Source: a bacterium
Lineage (GTDB): Bacteria > Margulisbacteria > Marinamargulisbacteria > UBA817 > JABISL01
Direction of reading: 5' to 3'
NCBI GenBank assembly: GCA_018700055.1
Contig: JABISL010000038.1
Coordinates: 19,161 to 83,160 of the forward strand
Length of the DNA: 64,000 bases
Shown here: positions 7,981 to 60,592 of the stretch, one piece after another
Position numbering within the stretch: the stretch's first letter is position 1
How the letters are laid out: each line of letters opens with the position of its first letter
Notes under the pieces: generated by a model
What the model was told of the DNA's origin: nothing
The model's database searches: none
Seen by the model: only the letters and a program-made list of their open reading frames with translations
Position numbers and translations under genes: made by a program

Positions 7981-8093
7981 TTACCCATGTCTTATACATG
8001 TAGTTTTTCTGTTGTATTTGTGTGTGTTACCATGATATTAGTATATATTTACGCCCAACCATCGCATAGCTCCCTACTCTTTTCATAAAAACA

Positions 8094-8109
8094 TGTTTCA
8101 CGTGAAACA
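8094..8109. promoter_or_regulatory. parS: parS site 2
   Basis: Perfect palindrome TGTTTCACGTGAAACA. Confidence 0.95.
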
Positions 8110-8191
8110 TTTGCACCATCACAAAAAAGTATACATGAGAGAAATTCGATATATTGAGCTTGTTTTCGTCTCTTCCTATTACAAATTTATT

Positions 8192-8200
8192 TGCTATAAT
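8192..8200 (+). promoter_or_regulatory. Extended -10 promoter of parA, 6 nt before GTG (leaderless candidate)
   Basis: TGcTATAAT 8192-8200, GTG at 8207, no SD. Confidence 0.65.
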
Positions 8201-8206
8201 GGTCTT

Positions 8207-9833: not shown

Positions 9834-9835
9834 CC

Positions 9836-10387
9836 TTATATATTCTGCTTAAAATAGATAAAATTGTTACTTTTTGTTACTTTTGTTATCAAATCAGTGC
9901 TTTTTAGATCATATTCCAATACTTGTTTTTGAGTGATCGGCACCAATAAATACGATTCCTTAAGAATTGGCATTTTTTGGGCGATTTTGATCACTTTTGG
10001 TAGTTTAGCGAACGCTTTTGCAGTTAAAACGTCAATTTTATCTATTTTTCTATTCGCATACTCCTGAGTATCCCCATCGAATACATTATAGTTCTCTAGA
10101 TCTAAAGTTTCTTTAGCTTGCTTAAGAAATGTCCTCTTTTTTCCCTTTGACTCAATTGCCCATATTTTATTATTGGGATTCATAATCGCCAGTATAATGG
10201 ATGGTAGCCCCGAACCTGAGCCCATGTCCGCTATCGTTATAGATGTGTTACCTATAAGCTCTGCCATATTTTGGCTATCTTCTATATGAAAATCTAGGTG
10301 TGGGTATGCATTTTTGGAATAAATGTTAACTGAGTCATTATAATCCTTGAGTAATGCGATGTAGTCTTTAATTTTTTGTGTGCTCAT
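9836..10387 (-). CDS. rsmG: 16S rRNA m7G527 methyltransferase RsmG (GidB)
   Basis: HIEDS, DMGSGSGLPSI, IESKGKK; start overlaps the mnmG stop. Confidence 0.9.
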   Translation of the reverse strand: MSTQKIKDYIALLKDYNDSVNIYSKNAYPHLDFHIEDSQNMAELIGNTSITIADMGSGSGLPSIILAIMNPNNKIWAIESKGKKRTFLKQAKETLDLENYNVFDGDTQEYANRKIDKIDVLTAKAFAKLPKVIKIAQKMPILKESYLLVPITQKQVLEYDLKSTDLITKVTKSNNFIYFKQNI

Positions 10388-12213: not shown

Positions 12214-12257
12214 ACTAGTCTTATCTTTCATTTTGTCGATAGGATATAATACTAGGA

Positions 12258-13016
12258 ATGGACTCGAAATCAAATGTATGTGACTACAAAGGGTACGACT
12301 ATAAGTCAGATTATTGGGGCAATGATGTCCGAAAATATGAAGATTTATGTGAGAAACGTACCTTAAGAACGTTATTAAAGCCTGTTGTCAGAAAAGATGG
12401 TCGTCTTTTGGATGCCGGGTGTGGGTTTGGACGTTTAATCCCCTCTTATCACGATTTAGTCGGATCCGTTGCATGTATGGACTACGCTACCAATATGTTA
12501 GACGGAGCAAAAAAGTCTTCCGAGCCCTATTCAAACACCATTTTTTCATTTGTTCAGGGCGATTTCTATTCTATTCCATTAAAGGACGCTTCTCAGTCTG
12601 TGGTGGTTACAGTACGCACCATTCATCATGTTGATAAGCCAGAGAAGTTTTTTAATGAAGTAAGCCGAATATTGGACAAAAATGGTCATTTTTTGATCGA
12701 AATATCTAATAAACGCCACATTCTACACATTATTCGGTGGATTTTAAGAAAAACTAGAGTTAGTCCGTTTACATATGAACGCCTAGAGCTGGGTGATCAT
12801 TTTTATAACTATCATTATAAAGACATCATTGCTCGTTTAAATGCCTGTGGATTTGATGTAAAAAGAACCAAAAATACCAGTTTTTTCCGCATTTCTATAT
12901 TAAAAAAGGTTATTCCGGCCAAAATACTTGCTTTTTTTGATCATTTATTTCAAATTTTATTTTCATGGACCAATCTAACACCTAGTATTTTTGTTCTTTG
13001 TAAAAAACGAGAATAA
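12258..13016 (+). CDS. Class I SAM-dependent methyltransferase
   Basis: [10 protein letters not shown] motif I and TIHHV..P...F.EVSRIL..NG; TATAAT 7 nt upstream. Confidence 0.85.
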
Positions 13017-13071
13017 ATTGTTTATTCTTTCTCGGCTGTGCTAATATATGCGAACCTAGTTTGGGTGAGAT

Positions 13072-13202
13072 TGTGGATTGTGGATAGCCTTGTGGATAAG
13101 TTGTTACTAAATCAATAATCGAGTTCAGTCAAACTCTGGGGTTTTAACCTAATTTTTCTGGTTTTTTTTGCGTAATTACGCACAAATAAAACCTGTGGAT
13201 AA
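13072..13202. promoter_or_regulatory. DnaA-box cluster upstream of dnaA (left part of oriC, likely autoregulatory)
   Basis: TGTGGATAA at 13091-13099 and 13194-13202; near-matches at 13072 and 13079. Confidence 0.85.
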
Positions 13203-13213
13203 CCTGTTTATAT

Positions 13214-14575
13214 ATGAGTATTAAACCTATTTGGGATATTATTCTTGATTCATTGGGCACACAATTGTCTGAACCGAATTTTCAAATATTTTCTACTTCG
13301 GTAGCGCCGGTCTCCTATGAAGGAAATATATTATCCTTAAAACTAAATAATGAGTTTACACGGACCTGGGTTAAAGATAAGTGTGAGCCAATTATTAAGG
13401 CAAGTTTGGCAGAAACAAATTATTCAAACCTTGTATTTGATTATATTTTCGAACAAATACAAGAGGAAGAAGATGATATTCCTCAAATGGAGCTGTTTCC
13501 TAGACAATCTCCAATGCCAGGCGAAAGCATTCCAAAGGATACATTAGTAGGTGTAAATCAAAATTTTACTTTTGAAAATTTTGTTGTTGGAAATAATAAT
13601 CGCTTTGCAAATGCTGCGGCACTTGCTGTGGCAAAAAAACCTGTTGTCGCATATAACCCATTGTTTATTTATGGCTCGGTCGGGCTTGGTAAAACCCACC
13701 TACTTCATTCTATAGCTATGAAAATTAAAGAGTTGCATCCTCACATGAAAATCCTAGTGGTTACTTCGGAGCATTTTACAAACGACCTTATTAATTCATT
13801 GAAAGATAAACGAATGGGTAAATTTAAGGATAAATATCGGCAAGTAGATGTATTAATGGTTGATGATATTCAATTTATAGCCGGAAAAGAGGCTACTCAA
13901 GAAGAATTCTTTCATACTTTTAATGAGCTTCATTCAAATGGTAAGCAAATTGTATTTACTTCAGACCGCCCTCCAAAAGATATCCCGACCCTTCAAGAAC
14001 GCCTAAGAACTCGATTTGGTTGGGGGTTAATCGCTGATATTCAGCCGCCTGAATTAGAAACAAGAATCGCTATTTTAAGGAAAAAAGTAGAGGTTAATGG
14101 ACTGCTTATTTCGGATGAGATTCTTCATTATGTTGCCACTCAAATTCCAAGTAATATTCGGGAGTTAGAGGGTGCATTAACACGCATAGCTGCTCATTCT
14201 TCATTATTAGATACTGAAATTACATTATCAATGGCTAGTAATGTTATTCAGGATTTAGTTGGAATGCACCACGAAAAGCCGCTAACGATTGGTACTATTA
14301 AGCGAAAGGCTGCTGATTATTTCAGCATTCCTTTGACTGAGTTAACCTCAAAAACTCGGACAAAAGAGGTTGCTTATGCACGCCAAGTGGCAATGTATTT
14401 GTCCAGAGAGCTTACTAACGTTTCCCTTCCTAAGATTGGTGAAAATTTTGGGGGGCGTGATCATTCGACTGTAATGCATGCTTGTGACAAGATAAAATCG
14501 CTTATGGAAAGTGATATGGAAACCCGAGGTATTGTTCAATCTTTAATAACTAGTATCCGTTCGGCGCAAGAATAA
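13214..14575 (+). CDS. dnaA: Chromosomal replication initiator DnaA
   Basis: YNPLFIYGSVGLGKTHL, DDIQF, RELEGAL, GGRDHSTVMHA. Confidence 0.99.
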   Translation: MSIKPIWDIILDSLGTQLSEPNFQIFSTSVAPVSYEGNILSLKLNNEFTRTWVKDKCEPIIKASLAETNYSNLVFDYIFEQIQEEEDDIPQMELFPRQSPMPGESIPKDTLVGVNQNFTFENFVVGNNNRFANAAALAVAKKPVVAYNPLFIYGSVGLGKTHLLHSIAMKIKELHPHMKILVVTSEHFTNDLINSLKDKRMGKFKDKYRQVDVLMVDDIQFIAGKEATQEEFFHTFNELHSNGKQIVFTSDRPPKDIPTLQERLRTRFGWGLIADIQPPELETRIAILRKKVEVNGLLISDEILHYVATQIPSNIRELEGALTRIAAHSSLLDTEITLSMASNVIQDLVGMHHEKPLTIGTIKRKAADYFSIPLTELTSKTRTKEVAYARQVAMYLSRELTNVSLPKIGENFGGRDHSTVMHACDKIKSLMESDMETRGIVQSLITSIRSAQE

Positions 14576-14599
14576 ATGGGGGTATGTCTGTTTACATGT

Positions 14600-14802
14600 T
14601 GTGAATAATTTGTTAAAACTCGTGGATAAATAGTTTTTTTTTGAAGTTGGTCGAGTTATTCTCATTTTATTAACAGGTTGATTGTGGATAAATTTACTTG
14701 TTTTTATATACAAATTTAGGGTTATCCACATATCCATAGGCCCTATAACAACTACTAGTTTATAAATATAATTTAATAATAATAATTAATATCAATTAAA
14801 TA
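14600..14802. other. oriC: oriC unwinding region (DnaA boxes, GC motif, DnaA-trios, AT-rich DUE)
   Basis: Boxes TGTGAATAA 14600, CGTGGATAA 14621, TGTGGATAA 14683 and TTATCCACA 14722 with a tandem degenerate box. Then GGCCC, TAT-AAC-AAC-TAC-TAG trios and an almost pure A/T tract at 14761-14802. Confidence 0.88.
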
Positions 14803-14824
14803 GGAAAAAGTAAGGAGTATTTTT

Positions 14825-16294
14825 ATGAAGTTTTCATGTAGCAGTGAGGAATTGTCAGGGGCGGTAGGGACAGTGGAGAAAGCAATTTCTTCTCGGACAG
14901 CATTACCTGTGATGGAAAATATATATATGGCATTGGAAGGTTCAACACTTACTTTGCGCGGAAATGATCTAGAAGTAGGTATTGAATATAGATTACCTGT
15001 ATCTGGATCGGATCAGACAGGAAAGGCTTTGGTTAAGGGTAGTACGATTAGTAGTATTGTAGGAAAAATGCCTAAACAGACGTTGTCTTTGGAGGTTGAT
15101 GAGAGTAATAAATTAACTCTACATGGTGATAATGTAGATTTTGATTTATTAGGACAATCCGTTTCAGAATACCCTGAATTCCCAGTGATTAAAGATGGGA
15201 CTAAGGTTACTTTAACGGCTGGTCAACTGGCAGATTTGATTAAACACACTATATTTTCTGTTTCTTTTGATGAAACCAAACAGTTTTTAAATGGAATATT
15301 ACTTAAGTTAGAAGGTGATTCACTTCATTTTGTAGCTACAGATGGATTCCGATTGGCATTAAAACAACTAAAATTAGAGTCGGCTCAATCTAATATTTCC
15401 GTTATTGTTCCATTTAAAGCGATGAATGAGCTAAATAAAATTGTTCAGCAATTGGATTCAAAAACAGCGGTTTCAATAACAATATCTGACAATCAAATTG
15501 CATTTTCTATGCCGAATATTCTATTGGTATCGCGTCTGATTCAAGGGCAATTCCCAGATTATCAGCAAGTCCTACCTAAGGTAACAGAGGTTAGTTATAG
15601 AGTGGCGCGTCGTCATTTAGTTGGGGCATCTGAACGAGCTCAGATTATTGCATCTCAGTCTAATAATGTGGTTCGTCTTACGTTTGGCGACACATTTATA
15701 CGAGTAAAAGCAGTGGCTCCTAAAATGGGTGAATTTAAAGAGGATGTTGAAGCTACAAGGCTTAGTGGAAATACTGAAACTAAAGTATCTTTTAACGTTA
15801 AATTAATTCTAGATGCGATCAAGCAATTAAATTCTGATGATTTAACATTGGCTTTTAATAATGAATTAAGTCCTTGTGTCTTACGTCCTATTTCAGATGA
15901 CACATTCACATATATTATTATGCCAATCAGAACGAGTGATTACGATGAAGAAACTCAACAACCTAGTTCTGAATCGGTTACAGAAACTAAAAGTGAAGTA
16001 GAGCCTACGGCGCCTGTCGTACCCGTTCAAAACGAAACACCTACTGTTACTCCGACACCAGCCGCACCTGTTCAAAATGAAGTATCTGCTCCAGTTCCGG
16101 TTTCTGTAACACCTACTCCGAATGAGGTATCAGGAACAGTTGTACAATCAGTTCCTGTGGCACCTACACAACCAGTGTCACAACCTACTGTTCCAGTAGG
16201 GGAATTTTCAGTCTCAAGTACACCAGTAACTGTTCAAGCTACTCCAACATCAGTAACAACTAACAATCCTGTAGGATCAACTACAGAAGTTTAG
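14825..16294 (+). CDS. dnaN: DNA polymerase III beta clamp with a long P/T/V-rich C-terminal tail
   Basis: GNDLEVGI, VATDGFRLA, GQFPDYQQVLP, YIIMPIR; AAGGAG SD; follows dnaA. Confidence 0.95.
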   Translation: MKFSCSSEELSGAVGTVEKAISSRTALPVMENIYMALEGSTLTLRGNDLEVGIEYRLPVSGSDQTGKALVKGSTISSIVGKMPKQTLSLEVDESNKLTLHGDNVDFDLLGQSVSEYPEFPVIKDGTKVTLTAGQLADLIKHTIFSVSFDETKQFLNGILLKLEGDSLHFVATDGFRLALKQLKLESAQSNISVIVPFKAMNELNKIVQQLDSKTAVSITISDNQIAFSMPNILLVSRLIQGQFPDYQQVLPKVTEVSYRVARRHLVGASERAQIIASQSNNVVRLTFGDTFIRVKAVAPKMGEFKEDVEATRLSGNTETKVSFNVKLILDAIKQLNSDDLTLAFNNELSPCVLRPISDDTFTYIIMPIRTSDYDEETQQPSSESVTETKSEVEPTAPVVPVQNETPTVTPTPAAPVQNEVSAPVPVSVTPTPNEVSGTVVQSVPVAPTQPVSQPTVPVGEFSVSSTPVTVQATPTSVTTNNPVGSTTEV

Positions 16295-16308
16295 CGTAGT
16301 ATTGAGGT

Positions 16309-17409
16309 ATGGTTCATAAGATCTGGATTAAACAACACCGTAATTTAGAAAATATTATGGTTTCGGTTAACCAGTCCCGCAATGTATATGTGTATGGATT
16401 GAATAATCAAGGAAAAACGAATTTTTTGGAGGCCGTGTATATGTGCGCATTTGGGCGGTCTCCTCAAGAATCTGAAATTAATCACTGTATTCCTTTAGAT
16501 AAACCTCATTCAGTGATGGGGGTGGCTTATGATATTGATGGGGACTCTCATCAGGCCTATGTAAAATTCTCTGAGACAGGACAGAAAGAAATTTCGTTAG
16601 ATGGACAAGTCATTACTTCTTTTCGTTCCTTACAGAAGCAAATACCAATGGATTATGTTTCTGCGGATGTGATTCGTTTATTTCAAGGGTATCCAGATAC
16701 ACGTCGACGTGATTTAGATCAGTTTGTTGGTCAGTTGGATCATGAATACACTGCTATACTTAAGCGATATTCTCAGGTATTAAAGCAAAAATCAGCGGCC
16801 TTAAAAGAGTCAATAAACCCTTCATCTGTCGATGTTTGGAATGATCAGTTAATTCCTTTGGCTGAGGTTTTAGTTAATCGTCGGTTATTAGCGCTTAAAC
16901 AATTATCAGACAAACTTCAATTGTTTATGGATGAGTTGGGTTTGGTTGAATTTTCTAAATTAGATTGTCTATATCAAGCGAAAAGTCTTGGAGACGCATT
17001 AGATCAATTTCCTAATTATCAGGAAAAACTAAAACAAAAATTAAAAGAAGGTCGCTTAAAAGAGTGGCACTCAAAACAGTGTTTATATGGTCCTCATCGT
17101 GATGATTTTTCTATTCGTTTTGATGGAAAAAGCCTCACTAATTTTTTCTCAAGAGGAATTAATAGAGCGGTGTCATTATTGGTAAAAGTGGCTCAACTTC
17201 AAATACTTTCTAATAGGGGTAAGGGGTTTCCCCTTCTTTTATTAGATGACGCTTTGGCAGAAATAGATGATACTAATCGGTCTAAGCTACTACCTTTTAT
17301 ATCAGCACATACCCAAATTTTTTATACTACAACGGATAGAAGTGATGAAAATTTTCTTCCTGAATGTATGGTTTATCAAATTAAAAAAGGCGTTTTATCA
17401 AATGGATAA
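16309..17409 (+). CDS. recF: DNA replication/repair protein RecF
   Basis: GLNNQGKTNFLEA, RRRDLD, GPHRDD, SRG, PLLLLDD; synteny. Confidence 0.9.
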   Translation: MVHKIWIKQHRNLENIMVSVNQSRNVYVYGLNNQGKTNFLEAVYMCAFGRSPQESEINHCIPLDKPHSVMGVAYDIDGDSHQAYVKFSETGQKEISLDGQVITSFRSLQKQIPMDYVSADVIRLFQGYPDTRRRDLDQFVGQLDHEYTAILKRYSQVLKQKSAALKESINPSSVDVWNDQLIPLAEVLVNRRLLALKQLSDKLQLFMDELGLVEFSKLDCLYQAKSLGDALDQFPNYQEKLKQKLKEGRLKEWHSKQCLYGPHRDDFSIRFDGKSLTNFFSRGINRAVSLLVKVAQLQILSNRGKGFPLLLLDDALAEIDDTNRSKLLPFISAHTQIFYTTTDRSDENFLPECMVYQIKKGVLSNG

Positions 17410-18062: not shown

Positions 18063-18442
18063 TGAGCGATGTTAAACGCATTTTAATTGTTGATGATGAA
18101 CCATCGATTTTAGAGATCGTTGAAATATTATTATCATCGGAAGGATATCAAGTTTTAAAGGCCTCAAATGGCCAAGAAGGGCTTGATATAGCTAAACAAT
18201 ACCTGCCGGATGCGATTATTTTAGATGTTATGATGCCCAAAATGTCAGGCTACATGGTCGCGACACTACTGTCTTCAGATAGTAAGCTTAAAAAAATTCC
18301 GGTTATGTTGCTTACAGCAACGGCGCAAATTGCTGGGAATATCACACTTGAAATTCCCACCCCCTATAAATTGTCGAAGCCTTTTAAACCTGAAGAGCTT
18401 CTTGATTTATTAACAACAATGTTGGAAGAAACAGCTGCCTAA
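18062..18442 (+). CDS. Single-domain response regulator (receiver)
   Basis: ILIVDDE, IILDVMMPKMSG, LLTA, KPF. Confidence 0.92.
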   Translation: MSDVKRILIVDDEPSILEIVEILLSSEGYQVLKASNGQEGLDIAKQYLPDAIILDVMMPKMSGYMVATLLSSDSKLKKIPVMLLTATAQIAGNITLEIPTPYKLSKPFKPEELLDLLTTMLEETAA

Positions 18443-19248
18443 ATATTGGTTAAATTAAGATAATTTAATTGATAATCGGATAATTCCCACAAGTTGAAAT
18501 TATTTATAAAAGAGTGAAAGGTTTCTACATCTTTTGTGACATAGCCTTCCCATTTATTGGGTGGGCCTACTGTTGCTTTGAGTGAATGGGTTACTAATTT
18601 TTGATTTAGTGGCGATACAATACAATTTGCAGGGTTTATAAATTTAAACTTAGGGTTTTCTTTTGAAAGTAATGATTCAAAGAAGGGATAGTGTGTGCAT
18701 CCATGAATAATTGTTTGGCATCCTAGGTCTATTAACTTACTAGTGTATTGTGCGGCCACTAAACTAGCCTCTGAGGATCCTAAGCGGTTAGTTTCAATTA
18801 AAGGGACTAACTCAGGACAAGCGATCTCGTGGACCGTTGTATTTGGGCTGATTGAGTGGATTGCTTGTTGATAGGAATGTGTATTTACAGTGTTTTGTGT
18901 TGCCATAACTGCAATCGGCGCCGAAAGAGCTTGGGGAGATAAGCTTAATGCAGTAGGTAATACCAGGTCTTGGACAGGAATTTTGATTTGATTGATAACG
19001 TCTTCTAGAAAAAGAGAATTACTAGTATTGCAGGCAATAACTAGCATTTTTATATCTTTTTTTAGAAGGAATGCAATGATTTCAAAGACGATATCATGTA
19101 ACTCATCTACTGATCGAGAGCCCCAAGGCGCTCTTAATGTGTCTCCTACATAGATAAATGATTCGTTTGGAAATGCGTGAGTTAAGGTACTTAAGACACT
19201 CAAGCCACCAACACCTGAGTCGAACACTCCAATAGGCTGTTTAATCAT
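18439..19248 (-). CDS. murI: Glutamate racemase
   Basis: GVFDSGVGGLSV, IACNTS, GCTHYP. Confidence 0.95.
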   Translation of the reverse strand: MIKQPIGVFDSGVGGLSVLSTLTHAFPNESFIYVGDTLRAPWGSRSVDELHDIVFEIIAFLLKKDIKMLVIACNTSNSLFLEDVINQIKIPVQDLVLPTALSLSPQALSAPIAVMATQNTVNTHSYQQAIHSISPNTTVHEIACPELVPLIETNRLGSSEASLVAAQYTSKLIDLGCQTIIHGCTHYPFFESLLSKENPKFKFINPANCIVSPLNQKLVTHSLKATVGPPNKWEGYVTKDVETFHSFINNFNLWELSDYQLNYLNLTNI

Positions 19249-19268: not shown

Positions 19269-21095
19269 TTAGTGGCTTTGAAAGTAAGATACGATACCAT
19301 TAAAAATGGACAGCGCTATTTTTTGTCGGAAAGCGGCCGTTTTAATTAATTTGTATTCATTTGGATTAGTGATAAAGCAGGGTTCAACCAATGCGCCAGG
19401 CATAGTTGAATGATTCAACACATACATCATGGATCGTTTAACCCCATTATTTTTCAGGCGAAGGTTTTTAACCATTTCTTTTTGAATTGCTGTAGCGAGC
19501 GGTTTGTCTGATTTTTTATAGTAATAAGTTTCAGTGCCTCGAGCATAAGATTTTATAAATGAGTTCACATGAACGCTGATTAAAATATCTGCCTTATTTC
19601 TATTTGCAAGTTGCGTTCGGGCGGCTAGAGAGGGGTTGGAGTCATTACGACGGGCCATTAACACCTTTGCACCGTGGTTCTTAAGTAATTTTTCTAAGCG
19701 GATTGAAATATCTAATGTGTATGCCTTTTCTCTTTCCATTCTTCTGCCAAGTGCACCAGGGTCACGTCCTCCATGTCCAGGGTCTATTGCAATAACCTTG
19801 TTTTTTAGAGCTTTATTGGCTCTTTTTGATCCATTTTTGGTTATATTTGGCTCTTTTTGATCAAAAACCTTTTTAATTGAGTCTTTTTTATAAATTGGTA
19901 GACCAGGTTTATCGGAAGCAGTATATGGGATTAATAGGTTTGTATTTTGGTTGGTACTTTGTAATTTTAGAGGTTGAGCAGAGGTGATAACTAGTCGGGT
20001 ATCGGATCCTTTTTGTGCTGCTGAAATCCGGGTGATTGTCGGATGGTCTAAATGTTTTGAAAAGGGTTGGAGTTTGAGTTGGGATTGGGGGATATCCCAG
20101 AATAAACGAAATGGGTGATGAAGTGTATTGGGATTAGGGAGTCGTATCAGGGGGTTTCCTTCAATATGAATTGTATATCCTTCATTTTTTTTAGTAAGGG
20201 TAAGTCCCGTGATGTTTTTAAGAAATATAATAGATCTATCAAACTGTCTCCATTTAAGGCTAAACCCAAGATCATGAGCCATAGCGTGTAAAGGAAAAAG
20301 GAACTGGTTTTTGGAAAATTTAACACTAAAATCAAGAGATTTGGTTTTGGTTTTAGTATTTTTTTGGATATCTACCTGATTACTGTTGGCGTGAAATGTA
20401 TAATACACACCATTTTTTTCTAATGAGATAGTAGAGTCAGTTTGTTTAACCATGTATCCCAACTGTTTCAGAACAGCAGCTAACTCAACATGTAATTTAT
20501 TATCAAAATATTCAAAGCGATCTGTTATATCAAACAGTTTCCCTGAGATATCGATATATGTTTTTTTTCTTTTGTCTAAAGGCTCATATTTCCCAATGGG
20601 TGGTTTTGGGTCTATTTTTAAACTAAAAATAGCACTATTTGAATCTTTTTGGACATATTTAGCCTCTTTTGATTGTTTTAGTGTACCTTTTTCAATAATA
20701 TAGAAATGATTGGCAGTTTTTTCTTGTAGCTGAAACCCCATTGGTAACAAGACAGAAGCGAGCGGGGCGTATAACACTCGATCTTTCATGAAGGAGGGGT
20801 GGCTTAATTTTTTCGGAGTGTCGGCCTGAGTATATTGGGTGGTATTTGGAAAAAGATGGATCTGGGACTGGCCCTCTATGGTGATGATGTAGGTGTTGGT
20901 TTTACGGTCGTAATTCAACTTTCCATGCAATTCTTTTACAAGCTCACGTAGCGGGACGAATATCGCATCCTTATTCTCTAGTAAAGGGGCCTGAAAATAG
21001 ATTGGGTTTTCAGAGATATGAATTTTTGGACTCGCTATTAACAAAAGAGGCGTGCCTAAAACTAATATGAAGAACAAGACCATGCGGTTTAACAT
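19269..21095 (-). CDS. N-acetylmuramoyl-L-alanine amidase (Amidase_3) with N-terminal stalk/AMIN-like domains
   Basis: Signal peptide, FVPLREL stalk motif, IDPGHGGRDPG, ISVHVNS, LVEPCFITN. Confidence 0.9.
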   Translation of the reverse strand: MLNRMVLFFILVLGTPLLLIASPKIHISENPIYFQAPLLENKDAIFVPLRELVKELHGKLNYDRKTNTYIITIEGQSQIHLFPNTTQYTQADTPKKLSHPSFMKDRVLYAPLASVLLPMGFQLQEKTANHFYIIEKGTLKQSKEAKYVQKDSNSAIFSLKIDPKPPIGKYEPLDKRKKTYIDISGKLFDITDRFEYFDNKLHVELAAVLKQLGYMVKQTDSTISLEKNGVYYTFHANSNQVDIQKNTKTKTKSLDFSVKFSKNQFLFPLHAMAHDLGFSLKWRQFDRSIIFLKNITGLTLTKKNEGYTIHIEGNPLIRLPNPNTLHHPFRLFWDIPQSQLKLQPFSKHLDHPTITRISAAQKGSDTRLVITSAQPLKLQSTNQNTNLLIPYTASDKPGLPIYKKDSIKKVFDQKEPNITKNGSKRANKALKNKVIAIDPGHGGRDPGALGRRMEREKAYTLDISIRLEKLLKNHGAKVLMARRNDSNPSLAARTQLANRNKADILISVHVNSFIKSYARGTETYYYKKSDKPLATAIQKEMVKNLRLKNNGVKRSMMYVLNHSTMPGALVEPCFITNPNEYKLIKTAAFRQKIALSIFNGIVSYFQSH

Positions 21096-21114: not shown

Positions 21115-24100
21115 TTATAAATTGATAGTGCCTTTAATTAACATTCCTGAAATAAATAAGTTATTTCCTGCATTTATTTCATCCTTAATTTCTTTTACAT
21201 ATCCTTCTCCGGTAATTATTAGGTTTTCTAGATAACGCACATTGTTTAATGGGACATTAATATTGATGTTAAGGTTTCCCATAAGCAAAGAGTCGTTTCG
21301 TTCTCGAATTTCTACTGACAGAACCTCTCCGGAGGCTGTTAATAAATTATCTCGCTCAATTTCATTAAACCCAAACCCATAACTCCTTACCTTTGAAAAT
21401 CCGACATCTACATTAAAGTTCTTGTAATTAATTGGTCTATATTTGAATCCAATTTTATCTTCAAATCCATTTGAGAAATCACCTGCATTTTGCTGTAGTC
21501 TTTTGCTTGAAAAGTCATAGAATAGCTCCATCCCTTCAATAATATGTAAGGCGACACCAGTGGTTAGTTTATCTTGAGAAAACAAATCTTTGATGGCAGC
21601 ACTATTGCTTACTTGGGTTTGATCAAATGCTCGGTGATCGATAGTTCCATTGAATGAAATTAGACCGAATGGACTAAATGTACCTCCAATGTTTGCATGG
21701 CTTTCATCAAGTCTTAGGCTGCTGTCGTAATCACCTTTCCTTAGTGCTTGAGGGGTTATATTAATGGTTACTGCGCTTTGTTGGTTTAAGCGATTAAATT
21801 CGGCTAATGAGGTAAGTGTAATGAAAGAGAAAGGGGATGCCTTTGAAGCGATTGCAACATCGTCGATCTCTTTAAACAAGCTTCCAATAGTGGTAGTTGA
21901 TCGATTACGATTATAGTATTCATTTTGATCCGTATAGGCAGTGTCTATGTCGATTAACCCAAGAGGAGCAAACCCTAGCGAATAGATATTTGCGCTAACC
22001 GCACTATCATCTAACGTTAAGCTACCTTCATCAATAGAGCTTCCATTTAAGAAACTTTTTAGTAATGACCGATCTGTTTTGGTTGCGGTCTTTAGTTGAT
22101 AGCTGGATCGTACGTTTTGAAGCGCTAAAAATCCAATACCAAGTGACCCTGGTGAGAAAGAAACATTATGGTGGTGTATGTCTTCTGATAACCTTTGGGT
22201 AGTAATGTTTTCTGTGCCTGATAGAAAGTCTATTTGAGAATTAGTAAGTGATTTGGAATTAAAAAAATCCCAAGTGTAATCAATTTTTTGTAGTAGGGCT
22301 GGGGTGGGTTTAATTTTAACTTGGCCATTAATTTTATCGTAGTTGATTGTAGCTCCTGAAAAAGTGGTTGAGTTGATATTGTTTGTATCAGCCGATTCGG
22401 ACTCTCTGTTTTCCACAGCTATAGATGTTAGAGATACTCCAGGTATGGGTGCGAAGTTACTAAAGGTGGCGGATTGATTGGTTTGTAAGAACTGTTTTTT
22501 TCGATTGTTTTCTCGGCGTTTGGTTTTTCCTGATAAATAAGATGCATGGGATCCAAAAAGTGGCTTGGTATACCACCCATCTAATTCTAAATGCTTAAGA
22601 CCAAAGTAAGGCTCGAAGCGAGGAACCCTAAAGGTTTCAACATCCTCAACACGGTCCTCCTGTCCCGCAATAGGACTAATAGATTCGTTGTGATTTAGTC
22701 CATATGAAGTGGTTAACCATCTATATGGGGCATAACTTGTTAACGATGAATAGTTATAATAAGGGTCGTTTGAGCTGGAGCTTGGGGTGGTTAATTTGAT
22801 AGCCTGTTGTTCAAATGACAATGTGTTATCCATTCGATCTATTAAGGTGGTATTGGTCTTAAACCCTATTTTTTCTGTAGTTTTGATTAGGTCGTTTGCA
22901 TCTAGATATTTGTCGGCCTTGTCTGTAGTGGTAAAAAAGTAGGGGTTGAGATTAAACCGTTTTACCAAGAGAGGGGATTTAGGTGTGTAGAATGTTTGTA
23001 TGCCATACCCAAACAAGAAGGAGTCGACTAAGGCGGTAGTGGATTCTGGGCTGTCTATTTTTTGAGAAACAGCCCCTGAGAATTTGGTGTTAAGTTCATC
23101 ATTTCCGAATGCATATGATGTTTCATAGGATGTGGACTCGGTATTGGGTTGTCCAGCAGAGGCGCTTCCCGTAGCCGTAAGAGAGTAGTGTCGAAAACTG
23201 TGCGTAGTGTGTAGTCCTGCAATTCCTAAGTTGGATTTCGTTATAAACTCATTTTCTGTTTTTAAAGTCTGTTTCTGCTCGTTTATCTTTGTTCTTTTTT
23301 CATAATGTGTTTGAATATTATTGGTACTGTTTATTGCCCAATTTACACCCGACTTTAATGCGAGTGTTCCCTTCTCATCCTTTAGCTCTCCAATGGATCT
23401 GAATTGAGGATCAATATATTTGAATTCGGTATCTACTGTGAGGCCCTTTTGTACCTCGTAAGCAGTGGCCACTCTCAGTGCGTTTGCATTAGCTGATTCG
23501 GGAAGGTCGGTTTGAAAATAGCTATAAAATATCTCAACGGTTTCGTCGTCGGGTATCGTTTTATTAATAAATCTAAACTCACCTTGTTCGTAATTCATAA
23601 AGTAATCAGACCCTCTGGTTTGAGATACTCCGTTAATAAAGATTGTTTCTGAGTCTTCTACAATAGGCTCGAAGGCCAGGACATATATCTCGTTTTCAGG
23701 TGCTTTTGTAAAACTTTCAAACCCGTCTTTTTTGGATTTGGAGAAATCGTGGTAAGAGTGAGCATACTCTGCATCAATTTTTAGTTTGTCCGATACGTTA
23801 TATCGCATAGTAAGGTCAATCATTTTTTGTTGCGTTTTGGCTTGGGACAACTCAGAGTCAGGGGTGTAGTTATATTTCATTTTTATCGTTGTGTCATTAC
23901 CAGGGAAATCTGACAATTGGGAGGGAAACCCTTTAAGAAACTTGAGTTCAAAATCCTGGAACGTTTCACCATCATTCGGATAGGTGACCTCGAAATCCCT
24001 TCCTTTTTCCAATTCTATATCTCCGGGATAAAGTATGATTCGATCGATTCCATTAAACTTAATGGGTAGACTGGGGGGCGTTATGTCCGAGATGCGATAC

Positions 24101-25947
24101 GTTTGAAGCCCTAGCCCCCTAAACGAATAGTCGGAAGGAAAACTTTTCCGATAGGAATAACTTATCTTTACTTGAGAAGCGATTACGTTTTGGAGGCTGT
24201 TTAGTTGAATGGTTCCTTCATAATAGTTAACGGTGTATTGGGCTGATGGGACCTCTTCGCTGTTAAGGACAACTTTTATTGGCCTGGACTCCTCAATAGG
24301 GTTGAATTTGGTGACTAGTATGTTATTAAGGTCTCCGGTGACATCTACAGGAATCTCGTCTGCTCTGGCAGCAAGGAGGTCTTCTTTTACGGAGGATGAC
24401 TCCTCAAGGTAGGTTGCACCAAAGCTAAGTGGCGACTCTTCTATATTTGTAGTGACCGCTCTTACCTCCAAAGCTTTGTAAGACGCTGTTATTTCGGTTG
24501 GATAACTTATTGGGTAATTGAAATAGAGCTTTCCTTCTTTGTGGCTGATTGTATAATCCACAAACTCTTTTGCCTTGTATCCAGAGACCGTAACAGTAAT
24601 GTCTTGTGGCAGAATATGCCCTTTTTGAAGGTAATAAGGCCCCGGGATTCCTTTCGCCAGGATATTTTCGGTGACAGCGGCGGTTTGATAGTAGTCATAT
24701 GTGATTGCTAAAGCATCCTCTTTTGAAATCTTTCGATTTCGAATAGATAAGACTCCTGAGGATTGCTTGAGTAGATAGTCTGTAACTCGCTCGAGAGGGC
24801 TTCCATTTAAGCTAACTGTTTCTGATCCAAGTACTATTGGCGCTTCGCTTAGTTGAAACTTAGGGTTAAAAGATACTTCATTCTCTGGGATTAATGTTTC
24901 AGAGATTGTTGTCGTAAGTTTGGTAACCTTGGTTTTCATGTGTGCTGGACGCCATTGGTAGTGAGCTCCCATAAATGTTTTTCTGGATAGTGATGGAATA
25001 AAATCTTGAATGGGGTTTGTGAACTCATAAATTACCTTAATGAAGTCTATTTTTGTTTTGGGGGTCGAGAACGTTACTTGTCCTTCAAAATAATCGACTG
25101 TGTAGTCGACACCCTCTTCTAGAAGTAGGTTGTTTAGGTAGACTAAGACGGAACCCTCTAGCAGGAATTGTTTTCCAACCTTGTAGACGGTGTTGTCTGT
25201 TCCAAATGTTTCATATTTCTGAGGTTCTGACTTGGTTTGACCGATTAAAGCAGTTCCTCTCCAGTTATCTGAGGATGATTTGACTCTAACTCCGTTTAAG
25301 GATTTTTTAACATTGATAAACTCCCCTGTATTAAACGTTTCTTCGAAGTCGCCAAAAGTTAGTTCGGTAGGGCCCTTTATAATGCCGATGTTATATTTTC
25401 CGGGGAAATCGGGCTCTTTTTCGATGTCATAACTTACGGAAAGATCTTCATCCAATTTTCCCTCTACGCTGATAAGGTATCTCATATCAAACTTTGGGGA
25501 GCCTCTAAGTACGTCATTGGGCAATTTTTTATAAATTGTATCGTTTCGAATGGCATCTAATTTACTTATATCTGACGAGTGGTCCCGTCCGCCTACCTTT
25601 AACTCAATAAATCCATCTGTTTGAACGTCAGGATACCGACTGTCTGTTTGGTACCTCGACATAAAAGGCATGGGCTTTTTAGTAATTTTTTGACTTGTTG
25701 GCGTGGACTTGTACCCTAAAATGGTTTCAATTTTACTGCTTTCGGTGACGAGTTTTTCGACAGGGGTGTTGGTGTCAAAATACCCTGGAAGGTAAAGTGG
25801 CTCTACCGTTTTGTTTTCTGAGGCGATTAGGTCCAAGATATTTGCGGGTTGAATTGACGGACTGGTAGGAGTAGATTCTGCGGCATAACCTATTCCCAGG
25901 AAGCCCCCCCACAATAATAGAATTCCAACATAAATAAATCGTTTCAT
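21115..25947 (-). CDS. Very large outer-membrane beta-barrel protein, SprA-like
   Basis: Signal peptide; about six S-[E/V]-x-V-x-[LI]NG...G-x-DY-x-[VIM]-x-Y-x-x-G modules; long amphipathic beta-strand C-terminal half. Confidence 0.6.
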   Translation of the reverse strand: MKRFIYVGILLLWGGFLGIGYAAESTPTSPSIQPANILDLIASENKTVEPLYLPGYFDTNTPVEKLVTESSKIETILGYKSTPTSQKITKKPMPFMSRYQTDSRYPDVQTDGFIELKVGGRDHSSDISKLDAIRNDTIYKKLPNDVLRGSPKFDMRYLISVEGKLDEDLSVSYDIEKEPDFPGKYNIGIIKGPTELTFGDFEETFNTGEFINVKKSLNGVRVKSSSDNWRGTALIGQTKSEPQKYETFGTDNTVYKVGKQFLLEGSVLVYLNNLLLEEGVDYTVDYFEGQVTFSTPKTKIDFIKVIYEFTNPIQDFIPSLSRKTFMGAHYQWRPAHMKTKVTKLTTTISETLIPENEVSFNPKFQLSEAPIVLGSETVSLNGSPLERVTDYLLKQSSGVLSIRNRKISKEDALAITYDYYQTAAVTENILAKGIPGPYYLQKGHILPQDITVTVSGYKAKEFVDYTISHKEGKLYFNYPISYPTEITASYKALEVRAVTTNIEESPLSFGATYLEESSSVKEDLLAARADEIPVDVTGDLNNILVTKFNPIEESRPIKVVLNSEEVPSAQYTVNYYEGTIQLNSLQNVIASQVKISYSYRKSFPSDYSFRGLGLQTYRISDITPPSLPIKFNGIDRIILYPGDIELEKGRDFEVTYPNDGETFQDFELKFLKGFPSQLSDFPGNDTTIKMKYNYTPDSELSQAKTQQKMIDLTMRYNVSDKLKIDAEYAHSYHDFSKSKKDGFESFTKAPENEIYVLAFEPIVEDSETIFINGVSQTRGSDYFMNYEQGEFRFINKTIPDDETVEIFYSYFQTDLPESANANALRVATAYEVQKGLTVDTEFKYIDPQFRSIGELKDEKGTLALKSGVNWAINSTNNIQTHYEKRTKINEQKQTLKTENEFITKSNLGIAGLHTTHSFRHYSLTATGSASAGQPNTESTSYETSYAFGNDELNTKFSGAVSQKIDSPESTTALVDSFLFGYGIQTFYTPKSPLLVKRFNLNPYFFTTTDKADKYLDANDLIKTTEKIGFKTNTTLIDRMDNTLSFEQQAIKLTTPSSSSNDPYYNYSSLTSYAPYRWLTTSYGLNHNESISPIAGQEDRVEDVETFRVPRFEPYFGLKHLELDGWYTKPLFGSHASYLSGKTKRRENNRKKQFLQTNQSATFSNFAPIPGVSLTSIAVENRESESADTNNINSTTFSGATINYDKINGQVKIKPTPALLQKIDYTWDFFNSKSLTNSQIDFLSGTENITTQRLSEDIHHHNVSFSPGSLGIGFLALQNVRSSYQLKTATKTDRSLLKSFLNGSSIDEGSLTLDDSAVSANIYSLGFAPLGLIDIDTAYTDQNEYYNRNRSTTTIGSLFKEIDDVAIASKASPFSFITLTSLAEFNRLNQQSAVTINITPQALRKGDYDSSLRLDESHANIGGTFSPFGLISFNGTIDHRAFDQTQVSNSAAIKDLFSQDKLTTGVALHIIEGMELFYDFSSKRLQQNAGDFSNGFEDKIGFKYRPINYKNFNVDVGFSKVRSYGFGFNEIERDNLLTASGEVLSVEIRERNDSLLMGNLNININVPLNNVRYLENLIITGEGYVKEIKDEINAGNNLFISGMLIKGTINL

Positions 25948-31500: not shown

Positions 31501-32565
31501 ATGTGGAAAGGCCTAATCGAAGAATATAGACAGTATTTACCTGTCAGCGATGCAACACCAGTTATCACTCTTCAAGAGGGAAACACCCCCTTGTTACGAG
31601 CGGATCGTTTGGCAGCAGCCATTGGGTGCCCCGCAACGATTCACCTTAAGTATGAAGGGTTGAATCCTACAGGGTCGTTTAAGGATCGCGGTATGACAAT
31701 GGCGATATCAAAGGCCAAAGAAGAAGGCGCGGAAATGGTAATTTGCGCCTCTACTGGAAACACTTCGGCCGCAGCCGCAGCGTATGCAGCAAGAGCGGAA
31801 ATGAAGTGTGCGGTATTGATTCCTGAAGGAAAGATTGCCTTAGGTAAATTGGCCCAGGCTGTCATGCATGGCGCGACAGTGCTTCAAATAAAGGGAAACT
31901 TTGACGAAGCGCTAAATATCGTGAGAGATGTAGCGGATCAAACGCCGATTGCTTTGGTAAATAGTGTAAATCCCTATCGTATACAGGGTCAAAAAACTGG
32001 TGCCTTCGAAGTTGTAGATCAATTAGGCGATGCGCCAGATTATCATTTTATCCCTGTCGGGAATGCCGGAAACATTACGGCGTATTGGATGGGGTATAAA
32101 GAGTATTCGGATCATGGAAAATCAACAAAACGTCCCAAAATGATGGGGTACCAAGCCGCTGGGTCTGCGCCTATAGTGCTGGGCCATCCGGTAGAAAATC
32201 CTGATACGATTGCTACGGCAATTCGAATTGGAAACCCTGCGAGCTGGGCCTTCGCTGAAGCGGCTAGAGATGAATCTGGCGGCACTATAGATAGCGTTAC
32301 TGACGAAGAAATCACCGAAGCCCAAAAACTTTTGGCTCAATACGAAGGGGTGTTTTGTGAACCTGCTTCCGCTGCTTCGGTTGCAGGGATTATCAAGCAT
32401 CACCGAGATGTAGGCTTATCCGACTCAGAAGTAGTTGTAGCAACGTTAACTGGTCATGGACTGAAAGACCCAAATAGAGCTATCGAAATTGCCTCAGCAC
32501 AGCCCAGGAGTGTCTCTAGTGACCGCTCAGAAGTGCAGGACATATTGATGGCTGAACTAGAGTAA
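31501..32565 (+). CDS. thrC: Threonine synthase
   Basis: [37 protein letters not shown]. Confidence 0.96.
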
Positions 32566-35500
32566 TGACCTCATCCGCTCGGATGTTTTTTCTTATCGCT
32601 CTAGGCATTGGACTAGGGGGATACATTTCCCTGTCGACTTTTTATCGAAGTAACGTTCCTCAACGGACGATTAAGACGCTTGTTGAGCGAGAAATGAGTA
32701 AAGCTTTTCGTCGTGAAGTTCAAGTGGATGGGATTTCTGGAAACTTGATAACGCAAGCAAAATTAACGGGAATTCGAATTGCCAGTATGGATACCGTTGA
32801 TAATGAAACGCTTTTGGAAATTGATGAGCTAGTAGCTAACTATAGTCTCATTCGAGCGCTTAGAAACAATGGCGATATATTGGCTGGAATCCACACTGTA
32901 GATATGAGAGGGGTTACGCTTAACCTGCGTCGGTTTCAGGATGATAAATGGAACTTAATGGACTTTTTGGTTCCGCCACCACCCGGTCCGGGAGAGCCCC
33001 CACTCAAACCTTTGACGTTTCGTGGCACGCTATTTATTCAAGGGTTGAGGGGAACGTTTAAGGACTATCATGGGTGGGGAAAAGATATACCAGAAACCCC
33101 GTTTTATGAGGAATTTGACTCGGGATTTGGACGACTTAACTTTAATCGACTTGAGAAAGCTAGTATTAGCCTGTCCGCTCGATTTAAAGACACCGGGTCG
33201 CCAATGAGTATGAACGGAACAATGAATGGCTATAATGGCCAGTTCCAATATGCGATTTCTATACCTCATTTAAACACTGAAAAGTGGGGCGAGTATGTAT
33301 TTCCCTTAGAGGGGTTTTCATTGGGAGATGACCCAATATCTGTTGTTGGGCGTTTAGAGAGTAAAAACCCTATCCCTAAAACTGGGAGCCCTTTTTATTA
33401 TTCTTTTAATCTTCAATTTGGCGATCTTATGTTTAAGACACCGTACTTTCCGGTCCCTATGGCACATATGGAAGGGGACTTATTATTTACTAACAATCCC
33501 AATGTTCGTGTTCATTTGTCTGGATTTAAGGGAGCGTTAGCGGGCATTCCTTTAAAAGGACATGGTGATATTCTTATTGATGATAAGCAGATTGATTTGG
33601 CCATTCAAACGCAGTCATCTTTTTCATTGGAATCCATGAAGGCACTTTTTCCAGCATTGGATATATGGTCTTACAAAGGGGTAGGGGCGACGGACCTAAA
33701 AGTTACTGGCGATCTAAATCGGCCAGAGATTAACGGAAAAATGATGGTTAAGAGTGCTTATTTTTATGGACTTACTCCTCAGGCACTTGAAGTAGATTAT
33801 CAATTTTTGGATCGAAACTTAGTTTTTTCATTTGATAAAGGGGAGCTATTCGGTGGGACCTTTCAAGGGAAAGGGGCGATAGGGTTTCAAGGCGGATCTG
33901 CATTTAACATGGCGTTTGATACACAGGATATAAATCTGCATCGGCTATTTCCTAAAATGAAAACACACCTCTCTCCATCAGTAAATGTAAGTGCGAAAAT
34001 TGATGGGCGCTGGGATCGATTTTTGGCTTCGATTCATATGGGTAGCGAAGCACTCAAGCTGTTTCAGCAGCCTGTTTCCAGCTTAGACATAGACATGGTT
34101 GTTCATGATGGACGCCAGGTGACTATTGAGTCATTTGATATGGCGCTTGAAGACAATAAATCATTAACAGCTAAAGGGCGCATCAAAAATCTAAGAGACC
34201 TTACATTACGTTATTCTGGGACTCAGATTCCCTTTTATGACGTTTATCCCAAGACTAAGCAGAATAAGTTTGGCCAAGCGACTTTGACTGGTACATTTTC
34301 AGCGCCTTTGATTCCTGCTTTTTTTAAATCTCCAATGCAGCATCTTTCTGTAGATACCGACGCGACCTTTTCTCATGGGAAGTTAATGGGGTTTCCTTTT
34401 CAAAAAGCGGCGCTCAAAATGACCTATTCCAAATCGAATGGTGCTGTGAAATATCTGGATATGGCAGACGGATGGTCCTCTATTCATTTGGACGGGGATT
34501 ATAAGAGATTGCGTCCTCAGGATATGAGGTTGACCCTGAGTCAGGTTGAAATAGCAGACGCGCCACTATTGATGAGTGTAATTCCAAATGACTGGCAGCC
34601 TGTTAGTGGCAAACTAAGTGCGAGTGTTGTGTTGACGGAATATGAGCAAGTCTATCCGCCCAAAAAGAAGCGAAGTGTGTGGAACGCGCTTAGAAATATC
34701 GATGTAAAAGGGACGGTTCGTGTCCAGGCAGGTCGATTGTTTAATCAACCCTTTGATAATCTGGCGATCAAAGCCCATTGGCGGGGCAATGGATTGGATT
34801 TGGATGCTTTTAAGCTTACTAATAATCTTTCGGAGATAGGTGTGAGCGGGACGTTGAATGACGTAGGGATGTCACTAAAAGTGCTTCCTGGAACGGTTTT
34901 GTATTTTTCAGATTTTGATACGATTTTGTCTTTATTTGGGGATGTAAAAGGCGTTGTTCATCTTAACGGTGCTTTGAAAGGGCGATATAAATCACCTGGC
35001 TTTGACTTGAACATCCAAGCCAAAGGATTGCAATACAATGCGATTGGACTAGAGGCGATTTCAGGGCGTGTTGGGTATCAATCCGGAAAGGCGATTTTTA
35101 AGTCATTAGTGATTCGTGATCAAAAAAGTACCTATCGTCTGAATGGCCATATGGACTTTTCTACTCTTTTAAAAGAGGGTGCGACCATCAGTGATTTTGT
35201 TTATGACATGTCCGTTCAATTTGAGGATGTGGCGCTGGAAAACAGTGTCGAGCTAGTTGATTTAATTTATCGAGAGCATAAGCGACGAAATCAACCACAA
35301 CTATCGGAAAAAATTAGTAATGGTAACGCGCAAGTGATTCAATCTGAGTCAGCAATTGCATATAGTTTAAGAGACCCTTATCTTTCTAAAAAAATCCGTG
35401 CGTTGTATCAGCCTGGAAATAAACGAAATAGTTTGGGGTTTTTTGATCAAATAAGAGCGGCACAAGCAGCGGATTTATTGGTCCAAGATTCCACTTTAAA

Positions 35501-52222: not shown

Positions 52223-52319
52223 AGCGCTAAGGTCTTTTTGAAGATAGTTCCAGCTTAAGTAGAATGTTTATCCTTTCCAAAAAGGGGGTATACCATAGTT
52301 GTACGCGGGAGTATTAGCT

Positions 52320-52961
52320 ATGAAACAAGTAAGATTATGGATATTGGGATTAATGCTAGCGGCGATAGTCGTTCAGCCAGCCTATGCTACGGTTGCAGCA
52401 GGGTCCGTTTTTGCTACATCTTCAGATAATTCTGGTGGCGCTACCTTTGAAAACAATACCTATCAATCTAGTCAGGTAGTGGCTTCAAGTGAGAATAACG
52501 CCATTGATGTATTGGGGCTTTGGTTCATTAATAATGGCCAGAGTGTCAGTGATGACTTGGTAGTATTTCGCTTAATATTTAATAACTTTTTGTTTGGTGC
52601 GGACGGTGCCGTCAACGTATCGGACATTGACTTGTTTAACGATGGAGAGGCTCGGTTCGTAACGCCGCCGTTGGTATATCCAAACCCTTGGGTAATTAGT
52701 AAAAGCGCTACTGCTGAATTGGGATATACATTGTCACGTAATATGAAAATGACGCTCCATATTTATGACATGCTGGGTCACCGAATTTACCAAAGAGAGA
52801 TTGAAGAAGGTAGTGTAGGTGGTGCCGAAGGAACAGGTAATAAGATTAAGCTAAATGCAGAAACATTTGGCGGCTACGAGTTGTCATCAGGGGTTTACTT
52901 CTATGTATTTGTCTATGAAGGGAAAGTAATAGAAAAAGGTAAGTTCGCCGTTCTGCCATAA
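52320..52961 (+). CDS. Secreted protein with a T9SS-type-A-like (FlgD-Ig-like) C-terminal domain (start ATG 52320)
   Basis: Signal peptide ending AYA; GGAG SD; VYPNP...IYDMLG...LSSGVYFY...KGKFAVLP. Confidence 0.75.
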   Translation: MKQVRLWILGLMLAAIVVQPAYATVAAGSVFATSSDNSGGATFENNTYQSSQVVASSENNAIDVLGLWFINNGQSVSDDLVVFRLIFNNFLFGADGAVNVSDIDLFNDGEARFVTPPLVYPNPWVISKSATAELGYTLSRNMKMTLHIYDMLGHRIYQREIEEGSVGGAEGTGNKIKLNAETFGGYELSSGVYFYVFVYEGKVIEKGKFAVLP

Positions 52962-60588: not shown

Positions 60589-60592
60589 CCTA

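Follow-up and report, generated by a model that had tools for sequence, protein, structure and literature searches.

A remote, compact SprA homolog of the Margulisbacteria as a probable motor-less translocon for proteins with type 9 sorting domains

We analyzed a 64,000-nucleotide stretch of DNA (here, the window), positions 19,161 to 83,160 of contig JABISL010000038.1 (G000:C5:19161-83160), from a 1.85-Mb draft genome of the Marinamargulisbacteria (GCA_018700055.1) that is estimated to be 95.9% complete. On the minus strand, positions 21115..25947 hold an uninterrupted open reading frame (ORF) of 1610 amino acids (aa) with an ATG start, and we refer to its product, a SprA-like giant outer-membrane barrel protein, as P0001. 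An initial annotation, made from the sequence alone, had proposed this ORF as a candidate translocon of a simplified export route resembling type 9 secretion (by the T9SS), and the ORF proved to be real. We postulate that P0001 is a remote, compact homolog of SprA/Sov and probably acts as a motor-less translocon for cargo proteins that carry T9SS-type C-terminal sorting domains (CTDs). It stands outside the curated SprA family and yet most likely works like SprA.

Judged by eye, P0001 starts with a Sec signal peptide, MKRFIYVGILLLWGGFLGIGYA|AE. Residues 1 to 22 (25882..25947; this and all the following features of P0001 lie on the minus strand) comprise a hydrophobic core and then GYA|AE, in keeping with the leader that the initial annotation had recognized in the sequence. 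Residues 100 to 254 (25186..25650) make up an N-terminal strand block with seven predicted strands of 8 to 15 residues, which aligns with the beginning of SprA_N. Next comes a β module with its following strand (module 1, residues 255 to 344, 24916..25185), which contains the match to the SprA/Sov model TIGR04189. A profile of module 1 retrieved five further copies from the family alignment (hhalign probability 90.5 to 98.6%, E 1.4e-6 to 1.1e-15): module 2 (residues 364 to 419, 24691..24858, 98.2%), module 3 (residues 438 to 493, 24469..24636, 98.4%), module 4 (residues 545 to 603, 24139..24315, 95.9%), module 5, the most divergent copy (residues 633 to 717, 23797..24051, 90.5%), and module 6 (residues 755 to 811, 23515..23685, 98.6%, and 94.5% to the SprA module). 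The initial annotation had counted about six copies at about 23570 to 25170; there are six, within nucleotides 23515 to 25185, and all of the motifs that it had quoted occur in the translation. The remainder of the protein, in which some 800 aa of amphipathic strands had been noted, is a C-terminal run of 35 consecutive long β strands in the AlphaFold2 model (residues 817 to 1609, 21121..23499) and is presumed to form the main barrel wall. The family consensus ends in GTLNF, which we take to resemble the C-terminus of an outer-membrane protein.

Comparison with SprA by profile alignment yielded ordered matches in the N-terminal half of P0001. At full length, hhalign of the family alignment against a reference alignment of 25 true SprA proteins returned one module match only (probability 84%), and the family alignment was therefore cut into blocks that were compared one by one. 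Module 1 (residues 255 to 345) then matched SprA columns 714-788 with a probability of 97.6% and E 2.7e-12, and the same part of SprA was matched by residues 345 to 520 (columns 708-864, 94.8%, E 5.1e-8), 700 to 830 (columns 709-768, 94.5%, E 8.2e-8), and 500 to 720 (columns 713-783, 62.7%, E 7.2e-5). The N block (residues 100 to 262) matched columns 253-392 over 133 columns (49.9%, E 1.6e-4); this places it where the conserved part of SprA_N begins, 5' of the module, which is the order found in SprA. A joint alignment of residues 100 to 345 gave the same two collinear matches, first the N block and then the module, and controls with reversed columns gave E values of 0.3 for the N block and 0.11 for the module. 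By sequence, the case for homology to SprA is good for the module and moderate for the N block, and no homology is detectable for the C-terminal barrel.

Predicted structures extended the likeness to both halves of the protein. P0001 was folded with AlphaFold2 as two overlapping 1200-residue models, each with an 89-sequence alignment. The N model (residues 95 to 1294) had a predicted local distance difference test score (pLDDT) of 87.0 and a predicted template modeling score (pTM) of 0.66; the C model (residues 411 to 1610) had a pLDDT of 89.3 and a pTM of 0.65, with most 10-residue blocks of the strand run above 90. The 35 strands assigned by DSSP in the C model are 10 to 27 residues long each, and the N half (residues 107 to 812) holds 23 strands of at least 8 residues, of which about 20 lie outside the modules; in the N model, each of the six modules is flanked by strands of at least 8 residues. 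In Foldseek searches of the PDB, in which the SprA structures compared were 6H3I, 6H3J, 8GL6, and 8GL8, four SprA chains occupied ranks 1 to 4 for both models, a result that agrees with the SprA likeness put forward in the initial annotation. For the N model, the SprA matches had E values of 6.6e-17 to 3.3e-10, and the first other barrel followed at 4.3e-5; for the C model, SprA stood at 1.2e-7 to 4.3e-6, followed by FecA at 7.4e-6. VIA-align superposed the N model on 6h3i_A over 653 residues (model 11-1200, chain 132-2382) with a root mean square deviation (rmsd) of 9.9 Å and a Z-score of 18.1. The other top barrels were superposed over at most 448 residues at 17 to 20 Å, among them MtrB (Z 18.8, 17.1 Å, 448 residues) and TonB receptors (Z 14 to 17.6, about 19 Å, about 400 residues).

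The weaker structural matches include TonB-dependent receptors, LptD, and usher-type barrels, and P0001 could in principle be one of these, an identity to which we give next to no chance. TonB receptors have 22 strands, ushers 24, and LptD 26, numbers that the 35 strands in the C-terminal half alone exceed. P0001 also had no match to Plug, TonB_dep_Rec, LptD, LptD_N, or Usher in Pfam and NCBIfam (E≤0.01), and the LptD_N domains of this genome sit in other, smaller proteins (C15:44629-44925 and C48:38086-38436). The LptD barrel family PF04453 was not found in any of the nine genomes of the order, in a search so insensitive (2 of 14 controls positive) that this is uninformative. The excess of strands, the lack of a family match, and the location of LptD_N in other genes lead us to disfavor these barrel types. 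Nor, almost certainly, is P0001 a surface adhesin or S-layer protein that has no barrel and consists of β-sandwich repeats. The six immunoglobulin (Ig)-like modules would suit such a protein, and Ig arrays appeared as weak Foldseek matches to the N model (E about 1e-6, probability 0.3 to 0.5). Against it, some 800 residues of long antiparallel strands match outer-membrane barrels at a Foldseek probability of 1.00, and the Pfam scan of P0001 found no SLH or other anchor domain; the barrel-matching strands, the lack of an anchor, and the GTLNF ending of the family consensus disfavor an adhesin.

Candidate cargo and carriers of a SprA-like translocon were also detected. In the window, an ORF at 52299..52961 on the plus strand encodes a protein of 220 aa in which residues 126 to 217 form a C-terminal sorting domain of T9SS type A, scoring 29.2 bits against TIGR04183 (cut-off, 23 bits); the CTD-bearing protein that the initial annotation had placed at 52320 is this one, and it is a candidate cargo. 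Four proteins of the source genome pass the TIGR04183 cut-off, and a local profile brings the count to seven. Across the phylum, the model is passed in 144 of 146 genomes and in all 72 of high quality, typically with 3 to 24 matches per genome; it is passed in none of the 14 control genomes. The barrels of about 300 aa encoded beside CTD genes belong to the PorV/PorQ family NF033709 (107.7 bits against a cut-off of 90 for the first member), which was matched by all 29 carriers; TIGR03519 (PorP/SprF) was matched weakly by 7 of the 29. A profile of the carriers matched the solved PorV of F. johnsoniae (6h3i_F) at E 2.2e-22. PorV-like carriers were present in 60 of the 61 genomes sampled, often in 5 to 22 copies, and the source genome has seven. 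For four of its seven CTD genes, a PorV-like gene lies directly downstream on the same strand, with a gap of -3 to 55 bp. The proposal of a simplified T9SS-like export route thus gains contextual support from the CTD proteins and from the PorV/PorQ-family barrels that adjoin their genes. The part of that proposal that rested on small barrels in the window did not survive, as these are not PorV-like; the PorV-like genes sit elsewhere in the genome. The 188-aa ORF after the CTD gene of the window and the other small ORFs without a Pfam family had no NCBIfam match, apart from a lipid-A-disaccharide-synthase-related protein and a prenyltransferase-like protein.

At 36 of 89 loci of P0001 homologs, the barrel gene and a CTD-bearing gene are convergent, with their 3' ends 3 to 117 nucleotides apart. 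The homologs fall into two size classes, a long one of about 1500 to 1930 aa, which includes P0001, and a short one of 1308 to 1492 aa, and this adjacency was found at 36 of 41 short-type loci and at none of 48 long-type loci. All five of the CTD neighbors of short-type barrels that were scanned are S8 subtilases, and the adjacency may be inherited synteny within one clade. With a length of about 610 to 790 aa, these subtilases combine a prodomain and Ig domains with a CTD of the T9SS type. They may serve as cargo, or they may take the place of the PorU-type processing enzyme that is missing here. The source genome encodes a comparable S8-CTD protein (G000 C48:34623-36494).

Two further observations concern the carriers. 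A 768-aa protein (G000 C35:41039-43345; L095:4140-6446), whose gene follows that of a 1318-aa CTD protein at a distance of 55 bp, is PorV-like (local hmmsearch E 6e-26) and has a Glucodextran_B-type β domain and, at its end, SLH domains; such a carrier might be anchored in the cell wall. Elsewhere, a 4732-aa ORF (G000 C49:153110-167308, minus strand) adjoins a pair of genes for CTD cargo and a PorV-like protein; one such pair lies at G000 C49:149069-153096.

Proteins of the P0001 family are named "hypothetical protein" in the source databases. A search of 5.8 billion proteins retrieved 27 full-length relatives with 21 to 42% identity; all those that carry a taxon name are from Margulisbacteria or Marinamargulisbacteria, and a profile search added entries from WOR-1 and Saganbacteria. 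A homolog was found in 141 of the 146 genomes of the phylum (E≤1e-5) and in 71 of the 72 of high quality. Full-length conservation at this identity and presence in so many genomes indicate that the family is more than a product of chance. The family profile was also empty in the five genomes without a match, four of which are 55 to 89% complete, the fifth (G094) being 99% complete. Against 1.84 billion representative sequences, the profile gave 3653 matches at E≤0.001 (of which 1138 reached 1e-10 and 247 reached 1e-30), and the best 150 of the 3653 are nearly all members of the P0001 family itself. Some shorter relatives, of 836 to 1300 aa, occur in other phyla; a protein from an Armatimonadetes metagenome-assembled genome falls in one cluster, and one entry is named Chloroflexota. 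In the ESM Atlas, look-alike clusters from Rifleibacteriota and Armatimonadota, and a nearest cluster automatically named "SprA N-terminal domain-containing protein" (score, 0.96), serve as leads only.

Many results weigh against our reading, some concerning the kinship of P0001 with SprA and others the system around it. TIGR04189, an NCBIfam equivalog model of length 2319, has a cut-off of 200 bits, and P0001 reached 36.2 bits (residues 95 to 900), over model positions 603-671 only, and 25.4 bits in the genome search; the model was not listed in the hmmscan of full-length P0001. The best relative scanned scored 74.3 bits. With 50 of the 89 aligned sequences examined, 39 N-regions matched the model, which speaks for kinship; these matches were all at ≤73.6 bits and always at model positions of about 563-680, and all matches to the model together cover positions of about 563-697 only. 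PF14349 (SprA_N) did not match P0001 by hmmscan at E≤0.01, nor anything in the genome at E≤1, a search in which no control genome was positive either; the only Pfam match to P0001 was a weak one to DUF2460. Among PDB sequences, phmmer with P0001 found nothing at E≤1, and a 28-sequence family profile found nothing at E≤10. In the search of 5.8 billion proteins, the family profile reached true SprA at E values of 0.37 and 2.0 only. The C-terminal barrel half (residues 810 to 1610) had no significant SprA match by hhalign: residues 810 to 1210 aligned to SprA columns 1434-1511 with a probability of 13% and E 2.1e-3 (0.01 for reversed columns), and residues 1200 to 1610 had no credible match (0.5%, E 0.11). 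TM-scores to SprA were low (0.19 to 0.27), some loss being expected where half-barrels are compared with a closed barrel. Generic barrels tied with SprA in VIA Z-scores for the N model, and for the C model SprA was absent among the best 50 VIA-align rows, which held generic barrels only (Z 13 to 17). The resemblance to SprA/Sov that had been proposed for the ORF therefore stands as remote homology, on the ordered profile matches, Foldseek ranks 1 to 4, and VIA-align, and falls as membership of the curated family (36 versus 200 bits, no SprA_N).

An alternative hypothesis is that P0001 is a giant barrel not related to SprA, with which it has only a mobile β module in common, the rest of the likeness being generic barrel geometry. 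The significant sequence matches are confined to the module, whose roughly 60 aa also match the phage distal-tail or tail-tube families TIGR02217, PF09343, and NF052337 at subthreshold scores, and a cyanophage tail protein came fifth in the Foldseek search with the N model (E 2e-8). A module shared with SprA and present in phage tail proteins could be a mobile domain, and the tie in VIA Z-scores would follow from shared geometry. Several results speak otherwise. Outside the module, the N block also aligns, in the proper order, to the start of SprA_N, with an E value far below that of its reversed control (1.6e-4 versus 0.3). For the N model, the Foldseek E-value of SprA is lower than that of any other barrel by a factor of about 10 to the power of 12, and the VIA-align superposition on SprA is both the longest and the tightest. 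Known SprA partners are also present in the genome. We consider mere sharing of a module very improbable.

As for the system, searches of the source genome with the motor-ring models of GldL, GldM, and GldN (TIGR03513, TIGR03517, and TIGR03523) gave no match, and GldK (TIGR03525) reached 13.8 bits only. GldM was above its cut-off in none of the 61 genomes sampled. PorP/SprF (TIGR03519) had no match in the source genome. The catalytic part of the PorU sortase (NF033707) was not found there; the match to this model covered only its own CTD part (positions 961-1094), and all PorU-model matches in the genome fall in CTD proteins. No control genome has a T9SS, so that these negatives for GldK/L/M/N, PorP, and PorU come without a positive control. 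Of the partners that the initial annotation had named, PorV was recovered (NF033709), and PorU (beyond its CTD part), PorK/N, and GldL/M were not. The neighbors of the barrel gene, QueA, an amidase, and MurI, are housekeeping genes that indicate no secretion partner; QueA lies upstream at 32 of 89 other loci and the amidase downstream at 13 of 89. Both the barrel and CTD proteins are near-universal in the phylum, and their co-occurrence within it accordingly carries little information. In G094, which is 99% complete in 40 contigs, no barrel homolog was found by protein search, family profile, or TIGR04189, and this genome has 24 CTD matches, the most of any, and 9 PorV-like matches. This exception could be an assembly gap or could be genuine.

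These results would suit a SprA-related barrel with a different job, such as a large pore or a structural protein of the outer membrane, with the CTD proteins crossing by another route. A near-universal core gene set among housekeeping and cell wall genes, with no motor or ring found and with one CTD-rich genome in which no homolog is detectable, is what such a protein might look like. On the other side, no other candidate translocon was seen. Carriers of the PorV family, abundant in this phylum, are known only as partners of SprA, as far as the cited account goes (PMC10994853), and a CTD gene abuts the barrel gene at most short-type loci. We judge a different job unlikely and continue to prefer a SprA-like translocon for CTD cargo.

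If P0001 is such a translocon, it would be exported by Sec and then inserted into the outer membrane. SprA is described as a single closed transmembrane barrel of 36 strands (PMC10994853), and the predicted models suggest that the N-terminal strand block and the 35 C-terminal strands of P0001 could together form a very large single-chain barrel, with the six strand-flanked modules in extracellular loops that would make a cap roofing it. In the Bacteroidota, cargo is reported to enter the SprA pore, where its CTD binds PorV loops that protrude through a lateral opening, and the carrier-cargo complex is then pulled off SprA by a motor-driven chain; this extraction by the GldLM-driven chain is thought to be the step of T9SS that requires energy (PMC10994853). 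By the same logic, type-A CTD proteins would enter the P0001 barrel from the periplasm, their CTDs would bind loops of a PorV/PorQ-family carrier docked at the opening of the translocon, and the cargo would leave the barrel together with the carrier. Since neither a GldLM/PorLM motor nor a PorKN ring was detected, release of the carrier may be unpowered or driven by some other energizer. Since a carrier gene lies beside many cargo genes and a PorU sortase was not detected, the cargo probably stays at the surface, held by its cognate carrier, by analogy with the Bacteroidota, in which SprF anchors SprB (PMC12635249). We infer closure of the barrel, the cap, the lateral opening, the docking of carriers, and transport itself from these likenesses.

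P0001 and SprA/Sov are both giant single-chain β proteins that carry a signal peptide, and their N-terminal strand block and one β module are homologous and follow each other in the same order. Of the known structures, SprA resembles both halves of P0001 best, and the host genomes of both carry PorV-family carriers and type-A CTD cargo. P0001 is, however, about 700 residues shorter (1610 aa versus 2041 to 2596 in the aligned SprA proteins), lacks about 330 residues that separate the block from the module in SprA, and carries the module six times, against one clear copy in the SprA profile; moreover, no GldLM/PorLM, GldKN/PorKN, PorP, or PorU was found with it. The gene order at many cargo loci recalls that of sprB, a cargo gene followed by the dedicated carrier gene sprF. 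Here too, a cargo gene precedes a dedicated carrier gene, but the cargo carries a type-A-like CTD (TIGR04183) rather than one of type B, and the carrier is like PorV/PorQ rather than PorP/SprF. Some carriers differ from the known PorV/PorQ family in being fused to other domains, as in the 768-aa form with SLH domains. The likeness of the module to phage Dit and tail-tube proteins (TIGR02217/PF09343 DUF2460 and NF052337) comes with a difference, as P0001 is an outer-membrane protein in which the module interrupts the run of strands six times.

Other genes of the window were annotated from their sequences. Directly downstream of the barrel gene, 19269-21095 (minus strand) encodes an AmiC-like N-acetylmuramoyl-L-alanine amidase that contains copper-amine-oxidase-N1 and AMIN domains, and after it comes a glutamate racemase gene (MurI; 18439-19248, minus strand). 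The region 8093-17409 is a chromosomal origin region with parA, parB, gidB, gidA, dnaA, dnaN, and recF; the GC skew changes sign near 12 to 13 kb and has its cumulative minimum at about 12 kb. A gene for a 1674-aa TamB-like protein (32565-37589, plus strand) overlaps one for a 570-aa BamA/TamA-like Omp85 protein with POTRA domains (37579-39291, plus strand), and the two look like a pair of the translocation and assembly module type. Genes of the lipopolysaccharide (LPS) core and lipid A type at 49102-50505 and 60028-62256 (GT9 heptosyltransferase-like, SIS, HAD, and lipid-A-disaccharide-synthase-related) are consistent with a true LPS-bearing outer membrane. No phage context was found in the window.

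Type 9 secretion is described as specific to the Bacteroidota or to the FCB group in the accounts cited (PMC7463736, PMC7906972, PMC11611037, PMC12398890). No paper that combines Margulisbacteria with "type IX secretion" came up in a full-text literature search. "Margulis" and "T9SS" occur together in one review, which deals with contact-dependent predation (PMC12428579). Passages of one paper found for "T9SS" with "Terrabacteria" discuss PorE in Bacteroidetes only (PMC12204202), and the abstracts of the others found do not bear on the subject. We tentatively raise a broader hypothesis, which we find possible but rather doubtful: that an outer-membrane core of T9SS (a SprA-like translocon, PorV/PorQ, and CTD cargo) without PorKLMN is a universal, and possibly ancestral, route of the Margulisbacteria, including Saganbacteria/WOR-1, with relatives in diderms of the Terrabacteria type such as the Armatimonadota, and that the long form of the barrel may have more than 36 strands. 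With more than 36 strands, the long form would be the largest single-chain barrel known. If the broader hypothesis is true, the T9SS of the Bacteroidota would represent a motor added to an older translocon that was passive or powered differently.

The Margulisbacteria lie with the Cyanobacteria in the tree, far from the Bacteroidota. With a compact relative of SprA, many PorV-type carriers and CTD proteins, and no detected motor, the phylum would offer a natural test of whether the translocon works without GldLM. It would also provide a smaller translocon for structural work and a handle on the origin of T9SS. Under our reading, a core gene of an entire candidate phylum, annotated so far as a "hypothetical protein," would gain a function, and the secretome of that phylum could be predicted as all of its CTD proteins, including S8 proteases and very large surface proteins.

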